This document shows positions 3,309-58,087 of a stretch of DNA of 64,000 nucleotides, piece by piece. Numbering within the stretch: position 1 is the first letter of the stretch; each line of letters begins with the position of its first letter. Made by a program: the position numbers and the translations under genes. This stretch comes from Escherichia phage PSD2001. Location of the stretch: the sequence record OK254198.1; one strand, 5' to 3'. Below the pieces are notes generated by a model. It was not told the DNA's origin and ran no database searches. It saw only the letters and a program-made list of their open reading frames with translations.

Positions 3309-4061
3309 ATGGCCAATATCGTAAGATGTGAAATGCCAGACGGAGTTCATCGTTTCAAACCGTTTACAGTCGCTGATTACCGTGATTTACTGCTTGTGCG
3401 AAACGACATGAACAACAAACCCGTCGAAGAACAAAAACAATTATTAGACGAACTGTTGGAAGATTATTTTGGAGAATATCCAAAAGCATGGAGGCCTTAC
3501 ATATTCCTGAAGGTATTCACTTCCTCTATCGGTAAGACAAAAGTCCCGGTAGCGTTTGAATGTCAAAAATGTAAAAAGACAAAGCAGACTTTGTTTAACA
3601 TGAATCAGGGTCCATTAGTAAATCCAACGATGGAAACCGCCGGGATAAAAATACAATTTAAGTTCCCTGAAGTGGAATATAAAGATAAGTCAGAGCTTGT
3701 CTTGAATACCATCCAGACTGTCGAAGACTCGGAACAAAAATACAATTGGGAAGACCTTCCTGAAGAAACAAAGATGCAGGTTATCGATGCAATTGATATA
3801 GAGAGCCTCGAAGCACTCCTTAAGAAAATGCATTCGGTTTATATTCCATTTACATATGGCTGTTGTGAAAAGCACAAAACCGAATACACTGACCTGCTTG
3901 ACGTCTTTAAGCTTATCCTTAACCCGGATGAAGTCTTTGTATTTTATCAAATTAACCACTTGCTGGTAAAGAATCAATATTCGCTGGATAGCATCATGCA
4001 TATGATTCCTATTGAACGAGGTATTGCTTTATCACTAGTTGAGAAGGACTTGAAAAAATGA
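3309..4061 (+). CDS. 51: baseplate hub assembly protein gp51
   Basis: 250 aa, synteny, ATG confirmed. Confidence 0.8.
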
Positions 4062-7437: not shown

Positions 7438-7445
7438 GGAATAAC

Positions 7446-9850: not shown

Positions 9851-9880
9851 TATATCGCACTTCCTTGTGCTTGTAAACCC

Positions 9881-11941
9881 CTACGAAAGGAATTTAGGAG
9901 GAATAGCTTCCAAATTAATACAACTAGCAAGAATACCAAGACCTTGATTGACTTTCTTCGTTACCCCAGAGGATGCAAACGATGCAAAGTCAACAGATTC
10001 TGCTGGCTCTTCTGGTTCCTTGCCCTGATAAACGACAAGCTCACCAGTTTCCATCAACACATCACCATCATAGATAACTGCATTTTCATCCAGTTGGTCC
10101 GTAGTCTGGATATCAGCTTCCAGCATTTTGACGTTCGCGTTTCCTTGATACGAAGCATCAGTAATTTTGGTAATCTTAACTACAGTCCCACGAGGAAGAA
10201 TAACTTCCTGCTCGGATGGGTTGCTTGACAATTCCCCAGGAACAATTACGTTAATTAAGTCCGCCCCAGAAATTTTCCAACCAACATGCATCATTACGTG
10301 GTCGCGGCGTGCAGCCGGCATATCTGGTAAAACAATTTCGTCATCAGCCTGGAAAGATGTCCCATCACGATAGTCCTGATGAACTGCAGCCATAGCAACG
10401 TTCGCCACCCAGCCACCAAAGATAATCGGTTTAAACGACGTTGATACATAGTTCCTGAAATAAAATAATTTAGATTTCTTAATTTTATCAAATGTAGGAA
10501 CGTTTAAATATTGACCACGCCAAAGAGTTGTATTAGGCGGCAACTTATGTCCAATTTCAAAGGCCGAATCCAATTCCTTAATTGTTTCGACAACTCTGTC
10601 TAGATTTAGGAATTCAGCTTCTTCTTCATAATATTTACCCATCAAATAATTATTAATATCGGCATAGTTTGCTCCACAATAATCTGCAATTGCTTCTCGC
10701 TGGCCATAATGGAAACGGTTGTCAGTATACCCTGCTGTGAAATTAAGAGTATTTTCTGATGCTTCTTCGGCAAAGTCTTTAACTGCAACACGAATGGCGC
10801 TCGTGTATTCTTTTTCCCAGAGCGAGGCTGCATAAGTAGCTGCATCCAGGTTAGGAGGAGCATCATTCATTTTTCTTTCGATAAATGCAGCTTTGCGAAG
10901 GTTAAGAATCTCGGCACATGATTCGGCAAAAATCTGCATCTGCTTCATACTACCAACCGGAGCACGTTTAAGTTCACGATGCATACGGTTAAAAATTGGG
11001 TCAGAGTCTTCAACACGAATTTCTTCTTTCCAAACACCATTTGCTCGCATAGCCGTATCTGCTGCACGCATACGAGCCATAGTATTCGTTTCGGAAGGTC
11101 GAACAAAAATTTCCAGTTCTTCATAATCATCGATAAGTTCTGCCGTAGCCGGTCGACTAAACTTAGCAGCTTCTGCATCAATTTCGTCCCAGCCATCGGG
11201 CACGGAATCACTTGGAGCGTACTGGGCTTGTGCAATAGCTCGGCGACTGATTTTAGTTTTCTGGGCAACAGCAGCATCGGTCTTTTTGTTTGCTGCATCA
11301 ATCAGAACTTCGGCTGCGATTTCTTGTTTGGAGACTTGTGCGCCTGTATCTTTATTAGTGAATACATCGCCGACTTTAGTTTCAACTTTTTGATATTTCT
11401 CAGGGACCGGTGGCATACCATCAACCGAAAGCAGGTCAACACCCTTTTTGTACATAATTACATAAGCGTTCTTTTTACCGAGGCCAGAAGCATTCGGAAG
11501 AACATGATAACGCCCGCTGGTTTTCATTTGAATCAGTCGATTCATAATACGAATAACAGCTTGGTCTTGTCCTTTCATCTTTTTGGATGGGAAACGGAAC
11601 AAGACTACATCAGGTTTACCTAGTTTAATGCTTTCCCAGACTGTAACAAAAATCAGGTTAATTGCATCAAGAGGTTTTTCACCTAGACCACCCTTCAGAG
11701 GAACAGCATGGCCATGTGAAGTCCCGGAGAGCAGGAATACCTCGGCAATTGCATCACCACGTTTATATTGTTTAACTGTTTCTTTGCCCGTAAATTGCAT
11801 CAAACGAGCCATAAGAGAATTGGTCCCAGGAACACCGAATTGCCAAACCTGTGGGACCTTGTATTTTGGATTCATATTAATGACAGGATAACCGAAGGCT
11901 TCGATATATTTGTCAAAGAGTTCATTTAATTGTTCAGACAT
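9881..11941 (-). CDS. alt: Alt-type ADP-ribosyltransferase
   Basis: 686 aa (T4 Alt 682); C-terminal R-S-E core: LWRGQ, YVSTSF, SEQEVILPRGT; ATG confirmed. Confidence 0.85.
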   Translation of the reverse strand: MSEQLNELFDKYIEAFGYPVINMNPKYKVPQVWQFGVPGTNSLMARLMQFTGKETVKQYKRGDAIAEVFLLSGTSHGHAVPLKGGLGEKPLDAINLIFVTVWESIKLGKPDVVLFRFPSKKMKGQDQAVIRIMNRLIQMKTSGRYHVLPNASGLGKKNAYVIMYKKGVDLLSVDGMPPVPEKYQKVETKVGDVFTNKDTGAQVSKQEIAAEVLIDAANKKTDAAVAQKTKISRRAIAQAQYAPSDSVPDGWDEIDAEAAKFSRPATAELIDDYEELEIFVRPSETNTMARMRAADTAMRANGVWKEEIRVEDSDPIFNRMHRELKRAPVGSMKQMQIFAESCAEILNLRKAAFIERKMNDAPPNLDAATYAASLWEKEYTSAIRVAVKDFAEEASENTLNFTAGYTDNRFHYGQREAIADYCGANYADINNYLMGKYYEEEAEFLNLDRVVETIKELDSAFEIGHKLPPNTTLWRGQYLNVPTFDKIKKSKLFYFRNYVSTSFKPIIFGGWVANVAMAAVHQDYRDGTSFQADDEIVLPDMPAARRDHVMMHVGWKISGADLINVIVPGELSSNPSEQEVILPRGTVVKITKITDASYQGNANVKMLEADIQTTDQLDENAVIYDGDVLMETGELVVYQGKEPEEPAESVDFASFASSGVTKKVNQGLGILASCINLEAIPPKFLS

Positions 11942-11950
11942 TTTTAACCC

Positions 11951-13825
11951 TTAATTGAGAAGGTGTACAAGTTTTTCCATAGACAAATCATAAGAGATTC
12001 TGTCATATTTTTTCAAAAGCGAATTTGATTCGTCTATCTGGTCATTTTCTAAGATAGAGCATTCAACGAGAATGTATTTACCCATCGAACCCATCATGCC
12101 AGCTGTAGCACCATAGACTTTATCAATCTTAAGCATTGTTCCACGTGGAAGAATAACTTCGGTTTCAACGGACCAGTTTGCCAGGTCACCAGGAATAACT
12201 ACCTTGATATTTTCTGCACCTTTGATAATCATACCAATCTTGATTGTAGGTTTCGCCGAACCAGTTGCACTTTTAATAGTTGCATCGATTGCCCCATCAT
12301 CGATATCACTCGATAATGCATTTGGGTCAAGGTTCGCAGCGGTGTGGCCCATACGACCGAAAATATTTGGCGCCAGAGATGTACTCGCAAACATAGGAAG
12401 ATACATCGTTTTATTTTTGATGGAATTAATTGCCATATCGGTTGGCATGACTTGAGCACGGTAGATGATAGTTCCTTTTGGAAGCTTAACACCGTTTTCA
12501 AATACTTTATCCATATCGGAAATCATTTTGATTTCGCTTTCTTTTGCGTCAGCTTTCCCTAGCAGGAAATTATTGATTGCAGTATATTTTCCGCGAGTAT
12601 ACGCCTTAATTGCTTCGGCCTGGTCTTCAGTTATTTCAGGGTTGTCGGAGATATGAAATAATGGTTGGATGGCCTTGGTGTAAATTTCATCTGCAATAAT
12701 ACGAATAGCTTCTTTAGTCTTATCTTCGCGCGCCCAGGTTCCCACAATGGAGTCGTCAAGCAACATATCAGCAACTCTACGCAATGTATCAACAGGATTC
12801 TTTGAGGCTCGCAGGACGTTCGAAAACTCACTTATTTTGTGTTCCATGCCGACTTCTTTAAGAGCATTAAGCACATCCATAGCTACACGAGTTTTTGTCT
12901 TATCTTCACCGACATCGCCTTGCGCGACTAAATCAAAATAATCTGCATATTCATCACCTGCTCGGTCGATTACTTTTATCGAAGCTTTAGCTATCTGACT
13001 TTCTCTGGCATCATCTGTTGAATGCACTGCGCTGGTAGTCGAGAGCTTCGTATAAATCTCTTTATGTTCTGGCGAGAATTTAGCAAGCCCAGTTGGTTCG
13101 TTCCCCGAATACAACGCATTAATAGCCGCGCGTTTAGAAAACTTGGTTTTAACAACAACTGCCTGGTCTGTACGTTTTTCTTCAACCTTTGCAATGGATG
13201 CTGCAATAGCTTCATTTTTGGTAACAGTTTCACCGCTGGCTTTATCCACATAAACATCACCAACTTTCGATTCCACTTTTGTGTATAGCTCAGTGTTGAT
13301 GCCTGGAATTCCGGCGATAGATTCAATCGGTTTGGATTTACGATAAATCAATACGTAAGTATGTTTACCTGTGTATTGATACATATCATCCAGGACTTTG
13401 AATTGGCCACCCGCGCGAGCCATAATAAGTCGAGCAAGAACACGCTGAATGGTTCGTTCTTGCCCCTTCATTTTACGGGTCGGGAAGCGGAACATAATTG
13501 CATCCATTTTCATCAGTTTTACTTGTTCGTAAACTACATCAAAAATGGATTTAATTGCTCCAATCGGGTTATCACCAAGACCACCTTTAAGAATAGCTGG
13601 AGTACCGTTTGAATTTAATGACATCAAAATAACGTGTGCATACTTATCGCCAGTTTTGACCTGTTTAATAGCATCGCCTTCGGATGCGTAAGACACCATA
13701 CGAGCAATAAGATTATCATTCCCCGGGACCTGGATATTCCAAATCTGTGGAACTTTTGACTTTGAAAGGTTAATGGCCGGGATATTAGATTCCCCTTCAA
13801 AAACCTCTGACAATAATTCGGTCAT
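11951..13825 (-). CDS. second Alt-type ADP-ribosyltransferase (paralog)
   Basis: 624 aa; same N-terminal KVPQIW...VPG...LIARM pattern and R-S-E core (YRAQ, FASTSL, VETEVILPRGT); ATG confirmed. Confidence 0.8.
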   Translation of the reverse strand: MTELLSEVFEGESNIPAINLSKSKVPQIWNIQVPGNDNLIARMVSYASEGDAIKQVKTGDKYAHVILMSLNSNGTPAILKGGLGDNPIGAIKSIFDVVYEQVKLMKMDAIMFRFPTRKMKGQERTIQRVLARLIMARAGGQFKVLDDMYQYTGKHTYVLIYRKSKPIESIAGIPGINTELYTKVESKVGDVYVDKASGETVTKNEAIAASIAKVEEKRTDQAVVVKTKFSKRAAINALYSGNEPTGLAKFSPEHKEIYTKLSTTSAVHSTDDARESQIAKASIKVIDRAGDEYADYFDLVAQGDVGEDKTKTRVAMDVLNALKEVGMEHKISEFSNVLRASKNPVDTLRRVADMLLDDSIVGTWAREDKTKEAIRIIADEIYTKAIQPLFHISDNPEITEDQAEAIKAYTRGKYTAINNFLLGKADAKESEIKMISDMDKVFENGVKLPKGTIIYRAQVMPTDMAINSIKNKTMYLPMFASTSLAPNIFGRMGHTAANLDPNALSSDIDDGAIDATIKSATGSAKPTIKIGMIIKGAENIKVVIPGDLANWSVETEVILPRGTMLKIDKVYGATAGMMGSMGKYILVECSILENDQIDESNSLLKKYDRISYDLSMEKLVHLLN

Positions 13826-13850
13826 ATTGTTTTCCTTATAAAATATGATG

Positions 13851-16983: not shown

Positions 16984-17188
16984 CTTTGACACTGATAATC
17001 TTGGTTGCATACCACATGCCATGGTCTGGCAATCTTTCTTTAATTGACCGTCCGCGATATGTTTTTCGCATAACAACAGTTTTAATAGCATCTTCATCGC
17101 AAGCATATGGCGGTGATAAATCAATAACACGATAAGTCACTTCAACCATTTCCAAGCCAAACAGCTTTTTAAATAATTTCTTAATCAT
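16976..17188 (-). CDS. 70 aa protein, tandem paralog A
   Basis: MIKKLFKKLFGLEMVEVTYRVIDLSP...IISVKDV; clearly homologous to the next ORF. Confidence 0.55.
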   Translation of the reverse strand: MIKKLFKKLFGLEMVEVTYRVIDLSPPYACDEDAIKTVVMRKTYRGRSIKERLPDHGMWYATKIISVKDV

Positions 17189-17197
17189 GAAGATTCC

Positions 17198-17410
17198 TTA
17201 AATATCTTTGACGCTGATAATCTCTACATCAGCCCAATGACCATAACCAGGTAGACGGTCTTTAATAGATAATCCACCGTCAGATTTCAGCATTTTAATT
17301 GTTTTAGTATATGGTTCAATATTTCGGGCCCATGGACTCACGTCTGTTATGCGATAAGTCACTTCAACCATTTCTGTTCCCAAAATTTTCTGAATCAGTT
17401 TCTTAAACAT
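17198..17410 (-). CDS. 70 aa protein, tandem paralog B
   Basis: MFKKLIQKILGTEMVEVTYRITDVSP...IISVKDI. Confidence 0.55.
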   Translation of the reverse strand: MFKKLIQKILGTEMVEVTYRITDVSPWARNIEPYTKTIKMLKSDGGLSIKDRLPGYGHWADVEIISVKDI

Positions 17411-17929: not shown

Positions 17930-18295
17930 TTAGATATCAAATTCATTAAGAACTACATCAAAGATTGCTTCCAGGTGTTCAGGTTTTGCTTTGTTGCTCA
18001 GGATGTGACGAATCCAAGTTTTAACCAGAAGCTTGCGATTAACACCATTCCAGCAAGGATGAGTCCCTAAATCACGTTCACGGAAATCATCATCTAAAGC
18101 AATTTTAAAAGTTGAACCAGTCATAGTGATTGAAAGAGTGATACCATTTTCAAATCGCATATAAACGTAGTTAGGAGTCATATATTGTTCAATTTCACAT
18201 ACTGAACCGTTTTGATGTTTCCACAAGCAAATAACTTCAGAAGAACCTGGGATGCAGTTAGAAACATATTTGCGTTCAAAGTTGATGTAGTTCAT
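17930..18295 (-). CDS. hypothetical protein
   Basis: 121 aa; preceded by the conserved CTGGAGAATAAAATG initiation region. Confidence 0.55.
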   Translation of the reverse strand: MNYINFERKYVSNCIPGSSEVICLWKHQNGSVCEIEQYMTPNYVYMRFENGITLSITMTGSTFKIALDDDFRERDLGTHPCWNGVNRKLLVKTWIRHILSNKAKPEHLEAIFDVVLNEFDI

Positions 18296-18362
18296 TTTAT
18301 TCTCCAGTGTTTGGTTTGTTGGTACAGGTCTATAATATCATAACCTGTACCAAAGTAAACTG
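18296..18362 (-). promoter_or_regulatory. early promoter / stem-loop cassette
   Basis: Conserved leader, inverted repeat GGTACAGG...CCTGTACC with an AT-rich loop, GTAAAC -35-like element. Confidence 0.4.
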
Positions 18363-18364
18363 TT

Positions 18365-18733
18365 TTATGCGACTTTAATCCAATTATCTAAATTTAATTC
18401 ACCCTTAGCTTTCATTTTTTCAATCAAATCATCAGCAGTAGTGCGACCATTTTGATACCATGTAACATCTTCAGAATAACCAGTTTCTTCATCTTCATAG
18501 GTCTTACAACGAATCTTACCAGTTATGATAGTTTTCAGTTCGTAGGTATCACCAGTAAAAAAGTTTGTTACCATAATTTTCCAGGAGAAGTCATCAGAAG
18601 GACCTTCTGGAGTCATGCAAGAAACGAATTCAAATTGTTCTTTATACAAGTGCCATTGCATTTCTTTAGTTTCAATGGCTTTGTAACCGTCGTGGTCTTT
18701 ACCTTTGATGTATGAGTTAAGATTGATTTTCAT
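18365..18733 (-). CDS. hypothetical protein
   Basis: 122 aa; same conserved initiation region CTGGAGAATAAAATG. Confidence 0.55.
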   Translation of the reverse strand: MKINLNSYIKGKDHDGYKAIETKEMQWHLYKEQFEFVSCMTPEGPSDDFSWKIMVTNFFTGDTYELKTIITGKIRCKTYEDEETGYSEDVTWYQNGRTTADDLIEKMKAKGELNLDNWIKVA

Positions 18734-18806
18734 TTTATTCTCCAGTGTTTTATTGTGTAACTCAGTATGGAATCATTATGCACTGGACCAACCCTGTTGT
18801 AAACCC
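18734..18806 (-). promoter_or_regulatory. early promoter cassette with conserved leader
   Basis: Minus strand reads TTTACAA, 16 nt, CATAATG, then ATTCCATACTGAGTTAC leader and GGAG. Confidence 0.45.
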
Positions 18807-18814
18807 CTTTATGG

Positions 18815-18842
18815 AAAATAAAAAGGGACTCCGAAGAGTCCC
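18815..18842 (-). terminator. intrinsic terminator
   Basis: Hairpin GGGACTC-cgaa-GAGTCCC followed by a T-run on the minus strand. Confidence 0.65.
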
Positions 18843-23161: not shown

Positions 23162-23187
23162 AGGGTTCCACATCTCCACTACTTGAG

Positions 23188-23195
23188 TATAAATA
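23188..23195 (+). promoter_or_regulatory. late promoter TATAAATA for the HNH gene
   Basis: Plus-strand TATAAATA ~26 nt upstream of the ATG at 23222. Confidence 0.5.
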
Positions 23196-23221
23196 TAGTA
23201 TATCACCAAAGAGGACATACA

Positions 23222-25079
<1,858 letters not shown>

Positions 25080-26020: not shown

Positions 26021-26370
26021 TTGGTGAGCTCCTGGAAGTCCTGTGCGAACTTATCAAAAGACTGATTAATCTGTTTTTCAACTAATTTAGGCTTCGCGGC
26101 CACAACCTTAGTGCGTTTTGCATCTGCACGGAGTTTATCATTTTCCTTCTGCAGGTGTTCAACATATTCCTGACGTTCCTGGTCAAGGAGATTAATTTGA
26201 TTAATCTGGTCTTTTACTGATTGCAGATTTTTCGCGTTATCTTCTGCAACTTTGGTGACTTCCGCCACCGCTGTCTTGAGATTATCCACTTTTGCTTTTA
26301 GATAGAAACCACTACCAGCAGTTACTACCAGGGCGAGCATAAGCCCTGCAGTGAGATTACTTATTTGCAT
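26017..26370 (-). CDS. i-spanin (PseT.3-like)
   Basis: 117 aa; N-terminal transmembrane helix then charged coiled-coil region; ATGA overlap with the o-spanin. Confidence 0.65.
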   Translation of the reverse strand: MQISNLTAGLMLALVVTAGSGFYLKAKVDNLKTAVAEVTKVAEDNAKNLQSVKDQINQINLLDQERQEYVEHLQKENDKLRADAKRTKVVAAKPKLVEKQINQSFDKFAQDFQELTK

Positions 26371-26864
26371 AACTTGATGATTACCTCAACAATATCATCC
26401 TGGGATAAACCATTCAGGAGGATGTGATTTGTACTGTCAGATGCTGAAATGCGGAACTGATTACCAACTTCATCCGCCATATCATCCTGGGTCAACACTG
26501 GGTGTTTAATTCCCAGACGGTGTTGAAGTGTCAGGGGTTCAACCACAACATAACAAACACATCCATTGATATGCACATTAGGTTGGGTCTGATTGATGAA
26601 CACTTCTGCATCATATTTAACCAAATGGTTCTTTAAGAAGTCAACCATTTCAGGAACAGATTCATGCAGTGCTTCTTTCCGCTCTTCTGATTTTTTATCA
26701 CGATATTCTTTTTGTTTCGCCTTCAACTTTTTATCGGAGGCGAGTTTTTTCCGCAAGTCAGTCATGAGACCAATTTTCTTGGTCCCTTTATAGACATAAA
26801 TTCCGTCATGACGGTCACCATATTCATTGACAATCATTTCATTTGAAATCAGTTGCATATCCAT
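26361..26864 (-). CDS. alc: Alc (blocks host transcription on cytosine DNA)
   Basis: Track ORF trimmed to MDMQ start with GAGGA RBS, giving 167 aa (T4 Alc 167 aa); position between rnlA and the spanins. Confidence 0.6.
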   Translation of the reverse strand: MDMQLISNEMIVNEYGDRHDGIYVYKGTKKIGLMTDLRKKLASDKKLKAKQKEYRDKKSEERKEALHESVPEMVDFLKNHLVKYDAEVFINQTQPNVHINGCVCYVVVEPLTLQHRLGIKHPVLTQDDMADEVGNQFRISASDSTNHILLNGLSQDDIVEVIIKLCK

Positions 26865-26877
26865 AATATTTTCCTCA

Positions 26878-27111
26878 TTAGTAGCGGTTGTAACCCCGGG
26901 GACCAAAAGAGTTGGCACCCAGGCGTTCATCTTTCTTTTTGGCTCTTGCTCTAAACCCAGAATCACCTGTTTGAGCTTTCAGTTCTTTTAACAATTTGGC
27001 CTTCAGGTCAGTAATGAAACCAATCCGGCGGTCTCCCTTGTAGACATAGATTCCGTCATTACTGTCACCATATGCCTGTGTAACTCTTTCATTTGTAATT
27101 AAGTTTAACAT
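26878..27111 (-). CDS. 77 aa paralog of the Alc N-terminal region
   Basis: ITNERVTQAYGDSNDGIYVYKGDRRIGFITDLKAKL aligns with Alc ISNEMIVNEYGDRHDGIYVYKGTKKIGLMTDLRKKL; own GAGGA RBS and ATG. Confidence 0.55.
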   Translation of the reverse strand: MLNLITNERVTQAYGDSNDGIYVYKGDRRIGFITDLKAKLLKELKAQTGDSGFRARAKKKDERLGANSFGPRGYNRY

Positions 27112-34711: not shown

Positions 34712-34951
34712 TCACGCTTTCTTAGCGATTTTCCAGTCAGCTTTAAATTGGTCAACATCAGAGTGGTGAATCCAGAAACCAGATGAGCTACCATCTTCAT
34801 AAAGAGGACAACCATCACACTCATCTTTCCAACCCATTGCACACAAAGTTTCTTCAGCTTTTTCCAGAGCTTCTGGATTGTTACCCTGGATTGTAAAGTA
34901 CCATTTGCCTTTAACTTCTGAATCTTTGATGCTCTCACGTTGTAATTTCAT
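34712..34951 (-). CDS. hypothetical protein (frd.x)
   Basis: 79 aa; conserved CTGGAGAATAAAATG initiation region. Confidence 0.55.
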   Translation of the reverse strand: MKLQRESIKDSEVKGKWYFTIQGNNPEALEKAEETLCAMGWKDECDGCPLYEDGSSSGFWIHHSDVDQFKADWKIAKKA

Positions 34952-35025
34952 TTTATTCTCCAGGGTTTTAGTTGTTAACTCAGTATGGGACCATTATGTC
35001 ATAGCCCCATTTGGTTGTACACTAC
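34952..35025 (-). promoter_or_regulatory. early promoter cassette with conserved leader
   Basis: GTGTACAA, 16 nt, CATAATGG, ACTGAGTTAAC leader, GGAG. Confidence 0.45.
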
Positions 35026-35028
35026 TTT

Positions 35029-35295
35029 TTAAATTTTATCAAGCCATTTTCCAAGTTTAGTCATTTCCTTGGTGGCTTTTTCCATACTTCTGAACTTAAC
35101 TAATAAAGGATAGGTATCTACACCCATCACCAGATTGGTTGCAAGACTATGTTCACCCACAAGCCATAATGAGTATGTTTGAACATCCAGACCATAATTT
35201 CTGTCTTTATGTAAACGTACACCCATTACTTCAAACTGTTCACTCGCCCTTTCTACTGCGTCCAGGAAATCATCTTTAGTCATATTAGACCCCAA
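35029..35295 (-). CDS. hypothetical protein (frd.x)
   Basis: 88 aa track ORF. Confidence 0.5.
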   Translation of the reverse strand: MGSNMTKDDFLDAVERASEQFEVMGVRLHKDRNYGLDVQTYSLWLVGEHSLATNLVMGVDTYPLLVKFRSMEKATKEMTKLGKWLDKI

Positions 35296-35993: not shown

Positions 35994-36356
35994 CTATTTG
36001 AAAGCTTTTTGTAGAAGTTCAATGATTTGGTCAACGTTATTAGCATCCACAACACAATTAATAGAAACCGCACCTGAAGGTGTTTTTGCATAACTAGAGT
36101 ATTCACGGAAGCAATAAAACTCTTCTTCACTAAGTTCAAAATAATCATCGCCCATACCATCATCATTATAGATTGCACCATTAGCACAAATGATTTCGGT
36201 TACATAATCATAGCCGTCTGCACTTGATATTGATTTAACTTCAAACCAACCGCCATTTTCTTGGATGATGTCGACCATACCAGCATTCGATGAACTAATA
36301 TCAATGAAAGATTTAATACGATGTGGATTGAACTCATATTTTTTGCCGATTTCCAT
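35994..36356 (-). CDS. hypothetical protein, DDYFELSE-motif paralog 2
   Basis: 120 aa; DGMGDDYFELSEEEF. Confidence 0.5.
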   Translation of the reverse strand: MEIGKKYEFNPHRIKSFIDISSSNAGMVDIIQENGGWFEVKSISSADGYDYVTEIICANGAIYNDDGMGDDYFELSEEEFYCFREYSSYAKTPSGAVSINCVVDANNVDQIIELLQKAFK

Positions 36357-36359
36357 TTT

Positions 36360-36425
36360 AATTTCCTCAGTTGTTATCAGTAGTTGATGGAATCATTATG
36401 CCTTAGCTCAAAGGACTTGTACACT
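36360..36425 (-). promoter_or_regulatory. early promoter cassette
   Basis: GTGTACAA, 16 nt, CATAATG, leader ATTCCATCAACTACTG. Confidence 0.4.
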
Positions 36426-36433
36426 ACTTTTTG

Positions 36434-36465
36434 AAAATAAAAAAGGGACCCGAAGGTCCCCTTAT
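36434..36465 (-). terminator. intrinsic terminator after gene 32
   Basis: Hairpin GGGACC-ttcg-GGTCCC plus TTTTTTATTTT on the minus strand. Confidence 0.7.
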
Positions 36466-51907: not shown

Positions 51908-52236
51908 TTAAACCATCCTTTAACACGTTGCCACAGACTTTTCTGTTGAGCTTTATTAACACCAATTGAGCGAATAACTGGTTGTGATTCCAGGTATTCT
52001 TTATAGTCAGCTTTATAGACTTCATATGCTGCTGGAACAAAGGCACCAATCGCCGCCATGAAGTTCTTGCGAGCACCAAATGGAGCTACTGCATCATCCT
52101 GGCGATGGATAAGATACTGACCAGCTTTGACCTTGACAATAGTCCCAAGGTAAGCGCCATGATACCAAACATCCCAACCCTCTTGAGTAGGTTCTACGCA
52201 AGCACGCAATTCATTAACAATATTCAGCTTATTCAT
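51904..52236 (-). CDS. hypothetical protein (arn.x)
   Basis: 110 aa track ORF. Confidence 0.5.
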
Positions 52237-52243
52237 AATTTCC

Positions 52244-52852
52244 TCACTTTAAGATGTTAATAACATGTTGAATGTTTTCAGTTGACATATGATTGTCAAT
52301 GTAGGTATTCAATCCACCTACTTTAACGCTAAATCCCACGTCTGTAAACTGTTTTACTATCTTTTGTTCAGTATTATACGCATGCACGCGAATCTGACCA
52401 TCACGACGTACATCAATCTGTTTTAATGTCTTGACACGCTTGAACTTCACAATCAGATTGCTGCGGTCTTCTGAAATGCTCTTAAAGTCAATACCAATAG
52501 ACAACAATTGCTCTTTGATATATTCTGCAGTCGCTTCCATTTCATCAGTCACACCGCGTTTTGTTCTTGTCTTCTTCACTTCCAGAAGGTCAGGATTATT
52601 TTCATTCGCCCAAAGTTCAGCTGCATCCAGAATAAGGTCAACGCCTTTTTCTGTAACCATCAAACCATCACCAGAAGCTTCAACATAGTTGTTATTCAAC
52701 AATGTCTGCACACTATCAATTGATGTGTTCTGCTGGTCTAAAACAACCTCTGGACTCACGAAGTTGTTTTTGTATACAAACACCAGAGCATTGACATCAG
52801 TCTCATGCAGCGCGTTCTGGGAGCATTTAACGATATAATTTAACTTGTTCAC
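52244..52852 (-). CDS. motA: middle transcription activator MotA
   Basis: 202 aa; similar to remembered T4 MotA (SGDGL, QKFTD.G.S.K, ENI..VI); start appears to be GTG. Confidence 0.8.
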   Translation of the reverse strand: MNKLNYIVKCSQNALHETDVNALVFVYKNNFVSPEVVLDQQNTSIDSVQTLLNNNYVEASGDGLMVTEKGVDLILDAAELWANENNPDLLEVKKTRTKRGVTDEMEATAEYIKEQLLSIGIDFKSISEDRSNLIVKFKRVKTLKQIDVRRDGQIRVHAYNTEQKIVKQFTDVGFSVKVGGLNTYIDNHMSTENIQHVINILK

Positions 52853-52854
52853 AA

Positions 52855-53070
52855 TTATCCCTTAATAGATTTCATGTAATTTGATGCATATGATTGTACC
52901 ACAGTACGTTTCATATGGGAAGTAGAAACAATCACATCAATTGCTTGTTTACGTTCTTCTTTAGAGTTTGCCAGTTTGAACATGTCAAAGTAGTAGTAGC
53001 AAGCTTCTTTGTTAGATTTGAATTTGATGTTGATGTATTCTTGACCTTCATTCTGTTGTGCAGTAAACAT
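52855..53070 (-). CDS. hypothetical protein (motA.1 position)
   Basis: Trimmed to MFTAQQ, preceded by conserved CTGGAGAATAAAATG. Confidence 0.5.
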   Translation of the reverse strand: MFTAQQNEGQEYINIKFKSNKEACYYYFDMFKLANSKEERKQAIDVIVSTSHMKRTVVQSYASNYMKSIKG

Positions 53071-53152
53071 TTTATTCTCCAAAGTTTTTGTGATTCAGTG
53101 TGTAACTCAGTATGGAATCATTATGTCCTAAGACAAGGGGGTTGTACACTAC
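53071..53152 (-). promoter_or_regulatory. early promoter cassette with conserved leader
   Basis: GTGTACAA, 16 nt, CATAATG, ATTCCATACTGAGTTAC leader. Confidence 0.45.
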
Positions 53153-53160
53153 TTTTTTTA

Positions 53161-53195
53161 AAATAAAAAAGGACCCCGAAGGGTCCTAGTCTTTA
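53161..53195 (-). terminator. intrinsic terminator
   Basis: Hairpin GGACCC-ttcg-GGGTCC plus TTTTTTATTTT on the minus strand. Confidence 0.7.
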
Positions 53196-53284
53196 TCTAT
53201 CTTATTACCAATAAACATACCAACAATCACACCTGCGATTGCCGCAAAAATACAAAGCAATGCAAACTCAACTCCAAAACTCAT
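53186..53284 (-). CDS. 32 aa hydrophobic peptide
   Basis: Hand-translated MSFGVEFALLCIFAAIAGVIVGMFIGNKIDKD; ATG overlaps the gene 52 stop (ATGA). Confidence 0.3.
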   Translation of the reverse strand: MSFGVEFALLCIFAAIAGVIVGMFIGNKIDKD

Positions 53285-54660
53285 AGAGCCTCCAAGTCAT
53301 TAAGGTATTCAGTTTTAACATCAGTTGTCTTCCAGTATTCATGCTCAGCTTTCTTAGCCTTTGCTTCGTCTGCAAGCTTCTTGGCTTCATCAGAGGTCAT
53401 ATGGTAGATGTTCATCGCCACTAACTTCTCTGCATAATCGCCATATATTTCACTTGCCTGGAGTTCCTCAATCAACTTCTTACGAGGTTTCCCCTGGATA
53501 ACAACCTTACCGTCAATCACTTCTTTAATAAAGAAGACTTTTGCCCGGGCCAGTTTAAATGCTGCTTCAGTTTCTTTAATCTTACTGTCAATTCGCACTT
53601 GAACATAAGTCTTACGGACATCAACGAAATCGCGAATCAGGTCAAGCGTGTTGGTGTATTCGGCCAGCTTACCTTTGTGATTAAGCACCGTTAAGTTCTG
53701 GGAGAGCTTCTCAATCAGACCGAAGTCTTTCATGATTTTCTCATGATTCTCTTCTTCAGTACCATCCAACTTGTATTCTTTGCGGAATTTAATCTTAAAC
53801 CCAAAACCATGCTCGCCGCAGTTATCTTTCCAGGTGATAAAACCTTTCTCTTCCAGCGGGTCCAGGATTTTACTTGTATACTTTTCCAGGTTCCATTGGA
53901 CCGGGATTTCAGTAATTTCCATTTGGGTCCTGGAGGTCATTTTGTATGTGCCATGAAGTTCATACTTACCAGGCTCTTCCAGCTCAACAACTTCACCGCG
54001 GAATTCTGGATATTTTACTTTCGGAGCAACCGGCTCACGACCTTCCACGATAGCTTTAACAGCTTCCTTGACGTCCTGGAACGAATGAGGAAGTATATCA
54101 GTAGCGAAGCCAACAGCAATCCCAGAAGTGGCGTTAAGTAATACAGTAGGAATAACAGGAAGATAAAAAGCAGGAGGCTTATGTTCTTCATCAGGATGGA
54201 CCGGAGCATATTCTGTATCCTTAAACAAGTTATAAAAGTTCTTTGAAACCCTTGCGAATACATAACGAGCTGATGATGCTTCTGGCACCATTCTGGAACC
54301 AAAGTTGCCTTGCCCATCAAACATGGGGTATTCATTTTTATATGTTGCGACCAGACCAGAAGTTGCTTCTTCCGCCGATGCTTCGCCATGGTGATAACCA
54401 TAATCAGCTACGCCGCCGGCGATAGATGCAACTTTATGGAATTTATTCTTATCACCACGAGCCAGGTCTAATGCTCTCGCCATAACAAATCTGTGAACTG
54501 GTTTAAAACCATCAATCATGTTTGGGATGGCACGACCTTCCACAGTGTAGATAGCATATGATAATGCTTCCACATCAATAATGTCTTTTAGACTGCGTGG
54601 GTTAAGGGTCCCCATGGAATCACTGAACTGTTTGGACATCATACTTAAAACGTCAGACAT
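53281..54660 (-). CDS. 52: DNA topoisomerase II medium subunit gp52
   Basis: 459 aa (T4 442); GyrA/ParC-like, position after motA. Confidence 0.85.
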   Translation of the reverse strand: MSDVLSMMSKQFSDSMGTLNPRSLKDIIDVEALSYAIYTVEGRAIPNMIDGFKPVHRFVMARALDLARGDKNKFHKVASIAGGVADYGYHHGEASAEEATSGLVATYKNEYPMFDGQGNFGSRMVPEASSARYVFARVSKNFYNLFKDTEYAPVHPDEEHKPPAFYLPVIPTVLLNATSGIAVGFATDILPHSFQDVKEAVKAIVEGREPVAPKVKYPEFRGEVVELEEPGKYELHGTYKMTSRTQMEITEIPVQWNLEKYTSKILDPLEEKGFITWKDNCGEHGFGFKIKFRKEYKLDGTEEENHEKIMKDFGLIEKLSQNLTVLNHKGKLAEYTNTLDLIRDFVDVRKTYVQVRIDSKIKETEAAFKLARAKVFFIKEVIDGKVVIQGKPRKKLIEELQASEIYGDYAEKLVAMNIYHMTSDEAKKLADEAKAKKAEHEYWKTTDVKTEYLNDLEAL

Positions 54661-54668
54661 ATATCACC

Positions 54669-54809
54669 TTACCAGATTAACGAATGTACTGCCATTATAG
54701 CATCAGAAATAAAAAGCACAACCTGCACTAATGCAAACATAACTCCATAATACAACGCCACCAATAAGGTAGCAAGGGCTAACGAGTAGCCCAGGATTTT
54801 CTTAATCAT
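54669..54809 (-). CDS. 46 aa hydrophobic peptide
   Basis: Hand-translated [46 protein letters not shown]; ATGA overlap with the upstream ORF. Confidence 0.3.
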   Translation of the reverse strand: MIKKILGYSLALATLLVALYYGVMFALVQVVLFISDAIMAVHSLIW

Positions 54810-54991
54810 TTGTTAACCGCTGATTCCAGAAATTTGACTAAGGCATCCAGTACAAACCATGTGCAAATAAATCCTGCAAAAAGAGTACTTGGGACCCATA
54901 CACCTGTAGCAAAAAGAGTCACAGCAACGATAACAGCTACGAGCCAGATAAAAGTAAAAACTGTTTGCATATTTTCCTCAAGGGCGTCCAA
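54806..54991 (-). CDS. small membrane protein
   Basis: 61 aa track ORF with two hydrophobic segments. Confidence 0.45.
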
Positions 54992-55059
54992 AGACGCCAG
55001 TTAATTTCAGATTATGACGATGCCATTGCATCACGTGCTCATTATGGAAATTACTCATA

Positions 55060-55509
55060 TTAATAGCTCTGCAGAATGAATTTAAAGTTATCAGCAAGCA
55101 TGCGATTCATTTCTGAAAGGGTCTGACAATCAGAACTATGTGAGCGTGTGAACGCCATCGCAATTTGACCTTTACCATAACCAGTTGTCAAAGGTTTCAT
55201 TTTAGAAACTGGAACAAACAGGACTTCATAGATAACACCATTGTTCGCCATTGTGCGCGACAGTTGTGAACGCTGTTTGCGGATGTGACTTAATACAGTG
55301 TCAAACCCTTGTTGTGAACGTTGGTTACCAACGTAAAAACGTGCAGCAACAATACGTGATTCGCCTTCACCTTTAACCACGAAATAAAAACCTGGTTGGG
55401 TGATAGCTTCTTTAGTTGGACGCCCTACAACATAATTGCCATTATGGATGTGAGCAACAGTGGTAGCGCCAGCATTCAGTACGTCACGACGGGTCATGTA
55501 AGTAGTCAT
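55060..55509 (-). CDS. ndd: nucleoid disruption protein Ndd
   Basis: 149 aa; strong similarity to remembered T4 Ndd ([55 protein letters not shown]). Confidence 0.9.
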
Positions 55510-55544
55510 ATTAATTTCCTCAGTAAGTTAAAGTTTTGTGCTCC

Positions 55545-55585
55545 AGTGGGGTCATTATACTCTGACCCCAAGAGTTTGTACACTA
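55545..55585 (-). promoter_or_regulatory. early promoter / stem-loop cassette
   Basis: GTGTACAA, 16 nt, TATAATG; the -10 sits in the loop of GGGGTCA...TGACCCC. Confidence 0.4.
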
Positions 55586-55951
55586 TTTTTGAAGTTGTTC
55601 TAAAATAAATCCGCTGGTGTAAAAGGGAGCATTATAAACCTTGTTCAGTGGGTTCAAAGCCTGTCCGTAAGTATCACATAGTTCTTTGATAACATTTTCA
55701 TAGCTTACATAATAACCACTATGATAATACGGGTCCATACTCATACGAAATTTAATGAACCGATAAAAGCCTGTTTCTGGGTCTTGAACGAAAACGAAAT
55801 CAGCACTCGTCATAATTTTTGAATCTACGCCGGGAATCATACTTTGATTGAATGCCGCCGATGCATCCTGAAGGCTGAGTTGTTTAAAGAACATCACCTT
55901 AGCATTACCAAAAAAGATTTTAGACATGATAATTTCCTTATTCAGCGTCAA
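55583..55951 (-). CDS. hypothetical protein (ndd.x)
   Basis: 122 aa track ORF. Confidence 0.5.
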   Translation of the reverse strand: MTLNKEIIMSKIFFGNAKVMFFKQLSLQDASAAFNQSMIPGVDSKIMTSADFVFVQDPETGFYRFIKFRMSMDPYYHSGYYVSYENVIKELCDTYGQALNPLNKVYNAPFYTSGFILEQLQK

Positions 55952-56150
55952 CAGAAATAGCCATCAGTTCATCAACAGTAAGACACTGTACACTAGGACC
56001 TACGCAAAAACGCTTAGTTGAATCATTGAGGTCTGTAGCATTAACAGGTTGTAATTCGGTCCCAACTTGCAAAGGAGAAATACGAATAAGTTGTTGGCCA
56101 TTATGCAATACAAAGCTCTCACCGACTACCACATCTTTAAAAAGTTTCAT
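55938..56150 (-). CDS. hypothetical protein (ndd.x)
   Basis: 70 aa track ORF with GAGGA RBS. Confidence 0.5.
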   Translation of the reverse strand: MKLFKDVVVGESFVLHNGQQLIRISPLQVGTELQPVNATDLNDSTKRFCVGPSVQCLTVDELMAISVDAE

Positions 56151-56167
56151 AATATTTTCCTCAGTAA

Positions 56168-56314
56168 TTAAAGAATTTCTTCAATTTGAATGTATTTGCT
56201 ATAACCTTCCTCAATGAGGATATCACGAGCACAATCAGCACTGATATAAGCATTAAAGCTAAGGGTTTTAATCACTTTACCATGCAGCTTTACTTTATAA
56301 ATTCGATTACCCAT
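56168..56314 (-). CDS. hypothetical protein (ndd.x)
   Basis: Track ORF 56168..56356 starts at TTG; trimmed to MGNRIYKV with GAGGA RBS. Confidence 0.4.
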   Translation of the reverse strand: MGNRIYKVKLHGKVIKTLSFNAYISADCARDILIEEGYSKYIQIEEIL

Positions 56315-56325
56315 AATATTTTCCT

Positions 56326-56436
56326 CAGAAGTTAAAGAATACGCGTACATGGTCAATCATAAAAACAATTGGGAAAATGCTCAGGACAACAAACAGTACA
56401 AACATGTTCCAAATGGCTTTAAGTAACTTTTTCATA
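56326..56436 (-). CDS. 36 aa hydrophobic peptide
   Basis: Hand-translated MKKLLKAIWNMFVLFVVLSIFPIVFMIDHVRVFFNF; GGAGA RBS; coordinates approximate. Confidence 0.3.
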
Positions 56437-56445
56437 ATCATCTCC

Positions 56446-56495
56446 AGTAGTTGATAGGTTCATTATACTACAACCACTGGAGATGTACACTCTTT
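56446..56495 (-). promoter_or_regulatory. early promoter / stem-loop cassette
   Basis: GTGTACAT, ~15 nt, TATAATG inside inverted repeat CTCCAGT...ACTGGAG. Confidence 0.4.
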
Positions 56496-56580
56496 TATGC
56501 AAGTTTCAATAATAATAAACTAAAACAAACGCAAATTACTGGGATGCACAACATCCAGATAAAACACCAGGTTCTGCTGC

Positions 56581-56844
56581 TCACAATTCCACCTCAATGA
56601 TTTCAAGTTGATTTTCAACAATTGCATGCTGAATACATTTATACACATCAATGGACCAGGAATTATTATATTGCCCATCAATCAAACGTTGAAGGTCTTC
56701 GCGAGTTGACAGATATGGTTGGTCTGATTCCCATTTTGATAAAAACATTGTGGTGTATGTATCGCCTTCGCCGGTGACAAAGGTCGCGGATGCAACAAAT
56801 TCCCCAGTAACTTTATGCTTGACATAGTAAAATTTAAATTTCAT
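56581..56844 (-). CDS. hypothetical protein
   Basis: Track ORF 56581..56964 trimmed to MKFKFYYV with GGAG RBS. Confidence 0.45.
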   Translation of the reverse strand: MKFKFYYVKHKVTGEFVASATFVTGEGDTYTTMFLSKWESDQPYLSTREDLQRLIDGQYNNSWSIDVYKCIQHAIVENQLEIIEVEL

Positions 56845-56915
56845 TTTGTTTCTCCAGTCTGTTTGGTAACTCAGTATGAAGCCATTATGCACTGACTCCA
56901 TACTGATGTACACTA
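56845..56915 (-). promoter_or_regulatory. early promoter cassette with conserved leader
   Basis: GTGTACAT, 16 nt, CATAATGG, TTCATACTGAGTTAC leader. Confidence 0.45.
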
Positions 56916-56917
56916 TT

Positions 56918-57193
56918 TTAATTGTGCATTTGTTCTTTAACTTCTTTATATGCGCCAACTGCATTCACGACCCCAGTAAAATCTGCAGTACCGCGATAGA
57001 GATATAAAGCAATTTCAGTCAGGTGGTAGACTTCAAATTCTGAAAGATAAACGATAACGTCATAATATGCAACTTGACCCTGGACTTCGTTGAATACCAC
57101 ATCAAAAATTTCATGAGTTGGAAAATTGATGTTGTTGTTTTTGAGTGCTTGGATAAGAATTTGTTTGATGTTGTGAGTAGTAACGTGTTCCAT
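56918..57193 (-). CDS. hypothetical protein
   Basis: Track ORF 56918..57283 trimmed to MEHVTTHN with GAGGA RBS. Confidence 0.45.
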   Translation of the reverse strand: MEHVTTHNIKQILIQALKNNNINFPTHEIFDVVFNEVQGQVAYYDVIVYLSEFEVYHLTEIALYLYRGTADFTGVVNAVGAYKEVKEQMHN

Positions 57194-57240
57194 GATAATG
57201 TCCTCATTTGTTGGTATGAGGACATTATTACACAGTTGGT

Positions 57241-57834
57241 TCAGCTTGTAAACCGGTGATAGGGAAATTTTTCTTCTGAACAAGAACGGAGGTACCAGCC
57301 ATCCCCTTGTGACTTTTGCACAAGACCAGACTCAGGAACGAAAGCACCAGGTCCAGCAAGGAATTTTGGCTTAAAACGATAACCTTTGATAGTCTCTTTT
57401 ACATTAAACATAATCATAAGGTCAGCAAGCTTGTGTTGCATAAAAGGACCAAGATTGACCCCGTAACCATGCGGATAATCGCCCTGGTGACCAGTATGCA
57501 CGGATATCCATTTGGAACCGGACTGATGAGTCTTGACTTCAATTCTTACGCCTTCTTTCGAAACTACATCAAATGCAAAGGAATAAGGATTATCGTAATC
57601 TTCATCACCGCCGCATAAAAAGCCGGAGGTCCATTTGGCAATAGCTTGTTCTGCCATTGTAGCCACCATACATCTTTGCATGACTTGCTCACGGTCCTGG
57701 CCAGGGTCTTTACGTAATGAATACCTGGCAGTGTCTACAATCTTTTGCAGTGATTCTGGGGTTAAGTCTTCTTTTGTATAAAGAAAGGAAGGCATCTTTT
57801 TCAGATGCTCCCATGTTTTACTCTTCTGAATCAT
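57241..57834 (-). CDS. denB: endonuclease IV-like (positional)
   Basis: 197 aa between ndd cluster and rIIB (T4 denB 185 aa); no motif-level confirmation. Confidence 0.45.
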   Translation of the reverse strand: MIQKSKTWEHLKKMPSFLYTKEDLTPESLQKIVDTARYSLRKDPGQDREQVMQRCMVATMAEQAIAKWTSGFLCGGDEDYDNPYSFAFDVVSKEGVRIEVKTHQSGSKWISVHTGHQGDYPHGYGVNLGPFMQHKLADLMIMFNVKETIKGYRFKPKFLAGPGAFVPESGLVQKSQGDGWYLRSCSEEKFPYHRFTS

Positions 57835-58087
57835 CTTTTACCTCATCGATACCGACGATTCCCCGGATATGAAGCTCGCCATAGTACAAACGGTCATTAG
57901 CATCAAATGTATCAGAATCCGGGTCAGGAAATTCCCCAACAACTACTTCATCACATTCCAACCAGCCATAGTGAACATCACCTTCATGCTTGATAAGCTT
58001 ACCACAGTAAACTATTCCTGCATAATGATGACCCCGGAGATTTGAAACTTTGATGTCACGGTCTGACACATTGAAATGCTTAATCAT
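57818..58087 (-). CDS. hypothetical protein (denB.1 position)
   Basis: 89 aa track ORF. Confidence 0.45.
   Translation of the reverse strand: MIKHFNVSDRDIKVSNLRGHHYAGIVYCGKLIKHEGDVHYGWLECDEVVVGEFPDPDSDTFDANDRLYYGELHIRGIVGIDEVKDDSEE

Follow-up and report, generated by a model that had tools for sequence, protein, structure and literature searches.

Promoter-early stem-loop (PeSL) cassettes have been described in several T4-type phages, namely in RB49/phi1 (Arbiol et al. 2010, PMC2839356) and in PST/T4 and nt-1/KVP40 (Comeau et al. 2014, PMC4122927). The stem-loop of these elements lies between the promoter boxes, overlaps the -10 box, or is found just upstream (PMC2839356, PMC4122927), and for RB49/phi1 both mini-circles and promoter/terminator activity were demonstrated (PMC2839356). 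A second system of interest is the RegB endoribonuclease, which inactivates early messages by cutting their Shine-Dalgarno (SD) sequence (Uzan and Miller 2010, PMC3014915). The target of RegB and ribosomal protein S1 is an 11-nucleotide (nt) stretch of single-stranded RNA with the general consensus GGAGRAYARAA and the T4 optimum GGAGAAUAAAA (Durand et al. 2006, PMC1702504). Here we analyze a repeated element that combines features of both systems, in a stretch of 64,000 nt (hereafter, the window) from Escherichia phage PSD2001 (record OK254198.1); the focal copy of this cassette lies at 53187-53068 on the minus strand, in front of an open reading frame (ORF) of 71 amino acids (aa) that is followed by motA. 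All positions are window coordinates, and the cassettes, which are on the minus strand, are read 5' to 3'.

As judged from its sequence, the window is from a T4-type coliphage of the genus Gaprivervirus. Over window 52000-56000, the 4-kb stretch that was compared, Escherichia phage 212 has 97.6% identity, vB_EcoM_RZ (RZ) has ~94-95%, and VR20 has 96.7% over the aligning 91%; RZ and VR20 are classified as Straboviridae, Tevenvirinae, Gaprivervirus. The gene order, established from the annotation of relatives and from Pfam, is T4-like (alt/30, 30.7-30.8, alc, frd, 32, tail-fibre genes, motA, 52, ndd, denB, rII, 39), and the early genes are on the minus strand.

Results

A repeated control cassette in front of unrelated small early genes

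We conclude that one real control cassette of ~90 bases, made of a predicted terminator, a putative strong early promoter, a fixed leader and a ribosome-binding site that also matches the RegB target, is reused before unrelated small early genes. The initial annotation had placed the focal element at 53071-53152, in agreement with our reading of the sequence and with terminator and promoter scans (Table 1). The terminator of the focal copy (RNAfold, -14.2 kcal/mol, z = -3.1; also picked up by the terminator scan) is nearly invariant in an alignment of eight phages that includes the window. The A/T tract, which reads TTTTTTATTTTAAAAAAAGTA before the -35, differs in length among orthologues, with the AAAAAGTAGTGTACA block retained; by analogy with T4 early promoters (PMC2988021), it may serve as an UP element. 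There are 16 nt between GTGTACAA and CATAATG (53125-53119), and transcription is predicted to start at the A in position 53113, given the usual 7-nt distance from the -10. In the leader, ATTCCATACTGAGTTAC is followed by ACACTGAATCACAAAAACTT and then by TGGAGAATAAAATG (ATG at 53070), the start region TTGGAGAATAAAATG corresponding to 53082-53068; the predicted fold of this leader has -2.3 kcal/mol (z = +1.05).

The stretch from the -10 to the ATG (55 nt) contains one variable site across the same eight phages, compared to 17 of the 72 third codon positions in the ORF just downstream (Fisher p = 0.0005), and free variation at this locus is found in the 8 nt before the -10 and in the length of the A/T tract. 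Synonymous sites are less conserved than the orthologous leader, which is under selection.

Four minus-strand copies have in common the pattern GT(G/T)TACA-N17-CATAATG, a leader that reads (A/G)T(T/C)CCATACTGAGTTA, and a start region with GGAG, the chance expectation being none. These full (type A) copies are upstream of the ATGs 18733, 34951, 53070 and 56844. The 23-mer CATAATGATTCCATACTGAGTTA has two exact occurrences (18758-18780 and 53103-53125), one with two mismatches (34976-34998) and one with three (56867-56889), compared to zero matches in 100 shuffles; CTGGAGAATAAAATG is exact at 18293, 18731 and 34949, with one mismatch at 53068 (mean in shuffles 0.32, none reaching 4). A repeat search of the window yielded an 83-nt family with four copies, a nine-copy family of the promoter core, and a pair of 97-nt repeats (77% identity) that extends over the terminator. 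Conservation among the window copies is block-wise: in the alignment of the five named copies, the 16-nt spacer and the middle of the leader differ.

These motif counts, compared to the shuffles, and the repeat search bear out the claim of a near-identical cassette before several unrelated genes. Three of the four starts that had been named (18733, 34951 and 53070) follow full copies; the fourth, 18295 (gp30.7), has only ~25 nt around the start codon in common with them and no ATACTGAGTTAC leader. Conversely, the copy at 56913-56842, listed as a variant, is real and is actually the fourth full copy. The variants reported at ~25.6, 27.15, 36.4 and 56.9 kb were recovered as well. The -35 is not the same in all copies, the 18804 copy having GTTTACAA and not GTGTACAA. 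The proposal that a regulatory module was copied rather than a gene also holds: alignment of the copies shows that similarity stops at the ATG, the products are unrelated, and a pair of cassettes in a relative, VR26, matches at 71/72 positions. The products behind the type A copies are gp30.8 (PF06019), a DUF5417 protein (PF17438), and proteins of 71 and 87 aa without a Pfam match, with gp30.7 (PF06919) behind the partial copy; no pairwise similarity was detected among these proteins (all E > 0.1).

The general RegB consensus GGAGRAYARAA has 4 matches in the 64-kb window versus 0.3 expected. All are exact GGAGAATAAAA, located at 18295, 18733, 34951 and 53070, that is, exactly at the start regions named in the initial annotation, in which the GGAG had been likened to RegB sites. 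It proves to be the exact 11-nt published optimum, and cleavage itself would follow by analogy with T4. The leaders are predicted in silico to be less structured than their shuffles (0 to -2.3 kcal/mol, z = +0.3 to +1.5). The relative RZ, with 94.5% identity over window 52000-56000, encodes a RegB of 152 aa (PF10715, E = 2e-72) adjoining vs, as in T4. The resemblance to the RegB/S1 sites of T4 consists in an exact 11-nt optimum that doubles as the SD of early genes and lies in predicted single-stranded RNA; comparable sites are carried by T4 motA, ndd.6 and 30.7.

Table 1. Coordinates of the focal cassette, of the other copies and of the genes served, with the leader families
Feature	Position	Strand	Remarks
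Intrinsic terminator (predicted), focal	53160..53187	-	hairpin AGGACCC-TTCG-GGGTCCT = AGGACCCTTCGGGGTCCT (53187-53170), then T-run TTTTTTATTTT; would end the gene 52/small-ORF transcript
A/T-rich tract, focal	53150..53169	-	terminator T-run, then AAAAAAAGTA; position where an UP element would be
-35 region GTGTACAA, focal	53142..53149	-	sigma70 hexamer TGTACA 53148-53143; 17 nt to -10
-10 hexamer CATAAT, focal	53120..53125	-	invariant in orthologues
Type A discriminator and initial transcribed block G-ATTCCATACTGAGTTAC, focal	53102..53119	-	common to copies 18804, 35022, 56913; ATTCCATACTGAGTTAC = 53118-53102
Locus-specific leader part ACACTGAATCACAAAAACTTT, focal	53081..53101	-	predicted unstructured
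GGAGAATAAAA, SD and exact match to the RegB/S1 11-nt target, focal	53070..53080	-	consensus from PMC1702504; ATG = 53070-53068
71-aa ORF served by the focal cassette	52855..53070	-	no Pfam match; kept in all Gapriverviruses examined
motA	52244..52852	-	GTG start 2 nt past the stop of the 71-aa ORF; weak SD (AAGGGA)
Type A copy before gp30.8	18731..18842	-	terminator GGGACTC-TTCG-GAGTCCC and T-run, GTTTACAA, CATAATG, type A leader, GGAGAATAAAATG
Type A copy before DUF5417 gene	34949..35033	-	no upstream terminator; hairpin ATGGGGC...GTCCCAT with -10 in loop (z = -4.7)
Type A copy before 87-aa ORF	56842..56924	-	predicted 14-bp stem (core TCAGTATGGAG / CTTCATACTGA) across -10 (z = -5.5); SD region GGAGAAACAAAATG off the RegB optimum
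gp30.7 promoter	18293..18360	-	GTTTAC-N17-TATTAT; hairpin GGTACAGGT...ACCTGTACC around -10 (z = -5.5); only start region ACACTGGAGAATAAAATG common with type A copies
Promoter before frd.2	36354..36463	-	same terminator and promoter core; type B leader ATTCCATCAACTACTGAT
Type A leader family	copies 18804, 35022, 53149, 56913		CCATACTGAGTTA
Type B leader family	copies 27172, 35990, 36424, 56490		C(C/T)ATCAACTAC(TGAT)
Other leaders	remaining promoters		various

Probable exchange of cassettes and replacement of the genes behind them

Comparison of relatives reveals cassettes that are duplicated between loci and genes that are replaced at the cassette. In VR26, the cassette before the 71-aa ORF and another at ~66.5 kb, before an unrelated ORF of 122 aa, are identical at 71/72 positions from the interior of the spacer to the ATG. 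The flanks are unrelated on both sides, and the identity spans stretches without a consensus role, ACACACTGAATCACAAAAACTT and the spacer part TTGACCGG. The locus-specific part of the focal leader is duplicated before the unrelated 122-aa gene in VR20, VR25 and VR26. At the frd.2 locus of VR26, the terminator, -35 and spacer are those of the window, identical through CATAATGATTCCAT, after which a type A leader stands in place of the type B leader; the cassette reads as a chimaera, and half-cassettes would then be recombinable.

The gene behind the 56913 copy is swapped exactly at the ATG in 4 of the 8 relatives compared (RZ, EAWsc9, VR26 and TH41): in local alignments, homology ends at 56839-56842, at the ATG of the cassette, and resumes at 56606. 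For example, RZ has a 51-aa and a 92-aa gene in place of the 87-aa gene of the window. Other junctions between denB and ndd are on repeated CTGAGGAAAATATTATG start regions at 56312 and 56148. This region is a mosaic, with 9 of 91 related records covering at least 80% of window 55400-58000, and so is the frd region, with 27 of 345 records covering at least 80%. In the frd region, 268 nt are absent from phage 212 and 694 nt from VR26, each between repeated ATGAGGAAA(A/T)TAAAATGG motifs; these deletions (junctions 35661/35930 and 36354/35659) take out one or two genes plus the 35704 promoter.

A different arrangement is found in phages 212 and CJ20, in which an extra gene of ~88 aa after the 87-aa gene is bounded by a 26-nt repeat that is the 3' end of both genes (window 56581-56606, minus strand; 7166-7454 in the piece of the relative). 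The window has only one such gene, which is consistent with a gene having been lost or gained when the repeated ends recombined.

The wider set of putative early promoters and their leader families

The pattern GTKTACA-N17-YATAATG has 9 matches in the window, all on the minus strand, versus 0 expected. A broader promoter pattern has 14 minus-strand and 2 plus-strand matches versus 1.6 +/- 1.4 per strand in shuffles, and each minus-strand match is followed, within ~20-50 nt, by an SD-ATG and an ORF. Counting two looser matches (35704 and 57252), the window has ~16 putative minus-strand early promoters, confined to its early-gene parts, with none in the tail-fibre block; further promoters of this type are at 9877, 22402, 35704, 35990, 50641, 55582, 56489 and 57252. 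Most copies have (A)AAAGTA or AAAATA before the -35.

Since both the leaders (Table 1) and the start regions (GGAGAATAAAATG, ATGAGGAAAATAAAATG and CTGAGGAAAATATTATG) fall into families, the cassette can be viewed as a mosaic of a few interchangeable blocks. The type B leader precedes different genes in the window (alc-like, frd.2 and a 38-aa ORF). An exact-pattern scan of IMG/VR with the strict type A pattern gave 6-8 copies per genome, while the relaxed motif has 10 copies in VR20 and 9 each in VR25 and VR26; the VR20 copies that fit the strict pattern stand before eight different genes. Single copies of the 13-nt type A core occur in Morganella phage MP1 and in a Dhakavirus. The 14-mer TATCAACTACTGAT of the type B leader was rejected as a probe for viral contigs, being too unspecific (at least 120 scattered matches in unrelated contigs).

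Predicted stem-loops

Nearly all of the ~16 promoters carry a predicted stem-loop, which is a terminator lying upstream in some and a hairpin that encloses the -35 or the -10 in others. The upstream terminators at 18804, 36424 and 53149 have ~-14 kcal/mol (z = -3.1 to -3.9), and the three copies bearing them have no significant structure around the promoter (z ~0). Seven promoters without an upstream terminator (18360, 25626, 35022, 35705, 55583, 56490 and 56913) have a -10 hairpin (z = -3.7 to -7.2), with the 5' arm in the spacer that separates the -35 from the -10, the -10 in the loop, and the 3' arm at the transcript start; 35990 has a similar hairpin (z = -3.3). The -35 of 27171 is in the loop of a G4/C4 hairpin (z = -2.4), and at 57252 a hairpin extends from the -10 region to the promoter's own SD (z = -6.2). 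The two stem-loop architectures appear to coexist in the predicted structures and to be mutually exclusive in any one copy. In the 56913 copy, the conserved leader CTTCATACTGA pairs with the spacer TCAGTATGGAG, and in the 35022 copy GTCCCAT pairs with ATGGGGC; because the spacer arms complement the leader in these copies, the otherwise variable spacer seems to be shaped to pair with the conserved leader. The -10 hairpins are not classical terminators because there is no U-run behind them.

We also considered a structured leader RNA. A search of the whole window against Rfam at gathering thresholds gave no match and the leaders are predicted to be unstructured; for these reasons this candidate was rejected.

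Two of these structures involve an SD. The promoter 56489 (56435-56490, minus strand) is inside a predicted 17-bp hairpin (-25.5 kcal/mol, z = -5.95) in which the SD GGAG and the first ATG of a membrane-like ORF of 38 aa are paired with sequence from upstream of the transcript start. Because the hairpin needs sequence upstream of the start, read-through RNA would be translationally masked, whereas RNA started at the promoter would not. The T4 genes for lysozyme (e), soc and I-TevI are under translational control by a hairpin with an internal promoter, a late one. The arrangement at 56489, which concerns one neighbouring copy and not the focal one, is like that of e and soc in having a hairpin with an internal promoter, but here the promoter is an early one. 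At 57185-57230 (minus strand), a 13-bp hairpin (-17.3 kcal/mol, z = -6.2) reaches from AATAAT, a putative -10, as far as the SD of the following ORF, GAGGA, and it would mask the ribosome-binding site, since its 3' arm AUGAGGACAUUA holds the SD.

Comparison with T4 promoters and PeSL cassettes

The T4 promoters were read from the sequence (AF158101), the GenBank record having no promoter features. In T4, motA, ndd.6 and frd.3 have in common a near-identical cassette of ~80 nt, AAAAATTTTTTCACAAAACGGTTTACA...GGTACTATACAACTATC (piece 3600-3720 and 6997-7100; second piece 3803-3950). The leader AACTACTGATAC comes next in the copies of motA and ndd.6, the latter of which has TTGGAGAATAAAATG at its end. 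The leader ATCAACTACTGAT of T4 motA and ndd.6 is the type B leader of the window, at different genes, and the T4 equivalent of the focal -35 is GTTTACAA. The region upstream of T4 30.7 is a base-for-base orthologue, with the -10 hairpin and CGGAGAATAAAAATG also present, and the genes served in the window are orthologues of the T4 early genes 30.7, 30.8, frd.2 and ndd, with motA further downstream. Because T4 has an equivalent cassette family, the phenomenon is one already described for PST/T4.

The promoters resemble the T4 "uber" UP/-35/TGn/-10 early promoters (Hinton 2010, PMC2988021) in their extended consensus, A/T-rich upstream sequence, GT(T/G)TACA -35, 17-nt spacing and orthologous early genes. 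They differ in that the -35 is mostly GTGTAC (GTTTAC in T4) and the -10 is mostly CATAAT or TATAAT (TACTAT in comparable T4 cassettes), and the focal copy is without the TG one base upstream of the -10.

The likeness to the PeSL cassettes of T4-type phages, which the initial annotation had pointed out, is supported by the anatomy, the clustering and the gene replacements (PMC2839356, PMC4122927). Both kinds of element have an A/T tract, sigma70-like -35 and -10 boxes, a stem-loop upstream of or around these boxes, and an SD and ATG at the 3' end; and both are present in many copies of the same orientation among small non-essential early genes. In the published cases, insertions, deletions or replacements of genes that distinguish close relatives have their junctions inside the element; here, junctions of this kind are seen at 56839-56842, 35661/35930 and 36354/35659, the focal copy is static, and breakpoints also fall at SD-ATG regions that have no promoter. 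The most plastic region here, denB-ndd, is also one of the T4/PST examples (Comeau et al., PMC4122927). There are also differences: the window has the genus-specific GTGTACAA...CATAATG and ATACTGAGTTAC leader, compared to TTGACA...TATAAT in RB49 and TTTACW...TAYWAT in T4/PST, and both stem-loop architectures are present here, with a long invariant leader and an exact RegB site within the repeat. The comparison supports a cassette kind that has already been described (PeSL), in a Gaprivervirus version with a built-in exact RegB site. A literature search for promoter papers on VR7, SP18 or other Gapriverviruses found none, which does not prove their absence.

The 71-aa ORF and motA

The gene motA is probably translationally coupled to the 71-aa ORF, and hence under the same cassette; this is suggested by the GTG of motA 2 bases after the stop of the ORF and by the weakness of its SD. 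A RegB cut at the site of the 71-aa ORF would then probably lower MotA synthesis, as well. In T4, motA has its own GGAG ribosome site right after the promoter, with no ORF between, whereas here the site serving motA sits on the upstream 71-aa ORF.

Other features of the window

Tandem alt-like genes (RNA polymerase ADP-ribosylase; 686 and 624 aa) are located at 9881-13825 (minus strand), and a 1.9-kb segment with the second of them (11942-13831) is missing from VR25 and VR26, both junctions being SD-ATG regions. The 77-aa ORF behind the 27172 promoter (26878-27111, minus strand) has a match to Alc (PF17527, E = 7e-11) that is limited to the N-terminal ~60 residues; because it resembles the N-terminus of the full-length alc-like ORF just downstream (26361-26860), it is apparently a partial tandem duplicate of alc. 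A segment of 698 nt (23162-23859, minus strand) is present in the window and missing from VR20 and VR26, with one junction at a stop codon and the other at a GGAG-ATG start region behind the promoter-like TATACTAT. Two 59-nt repeats with 76% identity, 222 nt apart, lie within small adjoining ORFs at 16993-17410 (minus strand), and VR20 and VR25 lack ~205-210 nt in this area; the repeats are probably tandem small paralogues collapsing by recombination.

Discussion

We consider it probable that these elements are strong sigma70-dependent early promoters of a T4-type phage, organized as composite promoter-terminator cassettes of the PeSL kind. At the focal locus, the intrinsic terminator would halt transcription from gene 52, and the A/T tract, GTGTACAA and CATAAT would recruit the host RNA polymerase right after infection. 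Transcription from ~53113 would yield an unstructured, A/C-rich leader of 43 nt, and the GGAGAAUAAAA ribosome-binding site would direct translation of the 71-aa ORF and, by coupling, of motA. Once made, RegB would cut inside the same GGAG with ribosomal protein S1, inactivating the message and confining expression to the early period. In copies without an upstream terminator, the hairpin enclosing the -35 or the -10 would form only in read-through RNA from upstream, and it would attenuate or mark such transcripts, sparing RNA from the cassette's own promoter. The promoter and terminator activities, the transcript start, the RegB cleavage and the coupling, as well as the recombination mechanism, are proposed from the sequence and by analogy with the T4 literature. 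The likeness of the copies may reflect selection on every block, together with the very active homologous recombination of the phage, which would copy or exchange cassettes or half-cassettes between loci, with swapped small genes as a by-product.

Several observations weigh against this interpretation. A generic sigma70 scan of 50-58.5 kb showed no enrichment (30 versus 23.8 +/- 5.6 in shuffles), so the promoter call rests on the extended phage-specific motif and on the T4 analogy. The start region of the 56913 cassette (ATG 56844), GGAGAAACAAA, fails the RegB consensus, and regB is not in the window itself. The role of the -10 hairpins is a guess. In the indel survey, made against the larger pieces of 212, VR20, VR25 and VR26, nearly all junctions outside the tail-fibre genes are at SD-ATG regions, whether a promoter is present or not. 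Because such junctions occur without a promoter, an excess at cassettes over other gene boundaries is not evident, and selection for intact genes would give the same pattern. The focal copy is syntenic, with the same ORF behind it, in all eight phages compared; when mobility of this copy was looked for in the 7 relatives, none was found, the 71-aa ORF and motA following in each. Since the focal copy is fixed in this way, the association with plasticity is real for the cassette family but is not seen at the focal copy.

The alternatives differ in what they take the likeness of the copies to mean. That the copies are what is left of coding sequence that was duplicated, or of a small gene with the same history, is hardly conceivable. 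True paralogues do occur among the neighbours (the products of 35647 and 36356, with 35% identity and E = 1e-17; the tandem alt genes; the partial alc duplicate), but the similarity between cassettes ends at the start codon, the type A products are unrelated and belong to different Pfam families where there is any match, and the repeat follows a stop codon or terminator and precedes the next ATG. A single ORF crosses the focal cassette, a mechanical one on the plus strand that has a TTG start and overlaps the 71-aa gene; duplicated coding sequence was ruled out by the alignment, the protein comparison and Pfam. Purely convergent or retained likeness, in which independent early promoters and ribosome sites resemble one another under a common RNA polymerase, ribosome and RegB optimum with nothing copied, is unlikely. 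In its favour, conservation is block-wise, with the spacer and mid-leader differing between window copies; the 30.7 promoter is orthologous between T4 and the window phage; the focal copy is positionally fixed in the genus; and the functional optimum GGAGAATAAAA is found again in T4. Convergence does not account well for ACACACTGAATCACAAAAACTT and TTGACCGG, which have no known consensus role and yet are identical at the two unrelated VR26 loci, for the frd.2-locus chimaera of one upstream half and another leader, or for a type A leader with ~9-10 copies per Gaprivervirus genome (relaxed motif; 6-8 with the strict one) when T4 has a different leader for the same job.

It is very unlikely that the type A leader (AUACUGAGUUAC...) is a specific cis-acting signal, be it a factor-binding site for early shut-off, antitermination or mRNA stability, or a preferred recombination site. 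Its conservation beyond that of synonymous sites, its 13-nt core in Morganella phage MP1 and a Dhakavirus, the second leader family ATCAACTACTGAT common to the window phage and T4 at different genes, and the type B to type A switch after CATAATGATTCCAT in VR26, which puts the junction at the 5' edge of the leader, would fit such a signal. Against it, the leader has neither a predicted structure nor an Rfam match, no candidate binding factor was found, about half of the early promoters in the window have neither leader, and promoter escape, S1 binding or homogenization could explain the conservation. A related proposal, distinctly unlikely in our estimate, is that leader types A (AUACUGAGUUAC, largely Gaprivervirus) and B (AUCAACUACUGAU, also T4, at different genes) are exchangeable cis modules read by a specific factor, possibly one with a role in early shut-off, transcript stability or antitermination, possibly a recombination protein. 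If this were true, early genes would form regulatory sub-classes, with leaders swappable between promoters, as in the VR26 chimaera.

The interpretation as composite PeSL-like cassettes does not overturn the current understanding, and the refinements are modest. It would add one more T4-type genus to those with PeSL elements; many members of this genus came from sewage and animal faeces and were isolated with E. coli or Shigella as the host. With a long invariant leader and an exact RegB/S1 site inside the repeat unit, a single cassette would carry both the "on early" and the "off soon after" instructions, and upstream terminators and -10 hairpins look like alternative solutions within one cassette family. 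The motif may serve as a rule by which early transcription units and genes under RegB control are annotated in these genomes, and it would mark likely sites of gain and loss of small accessory genes.

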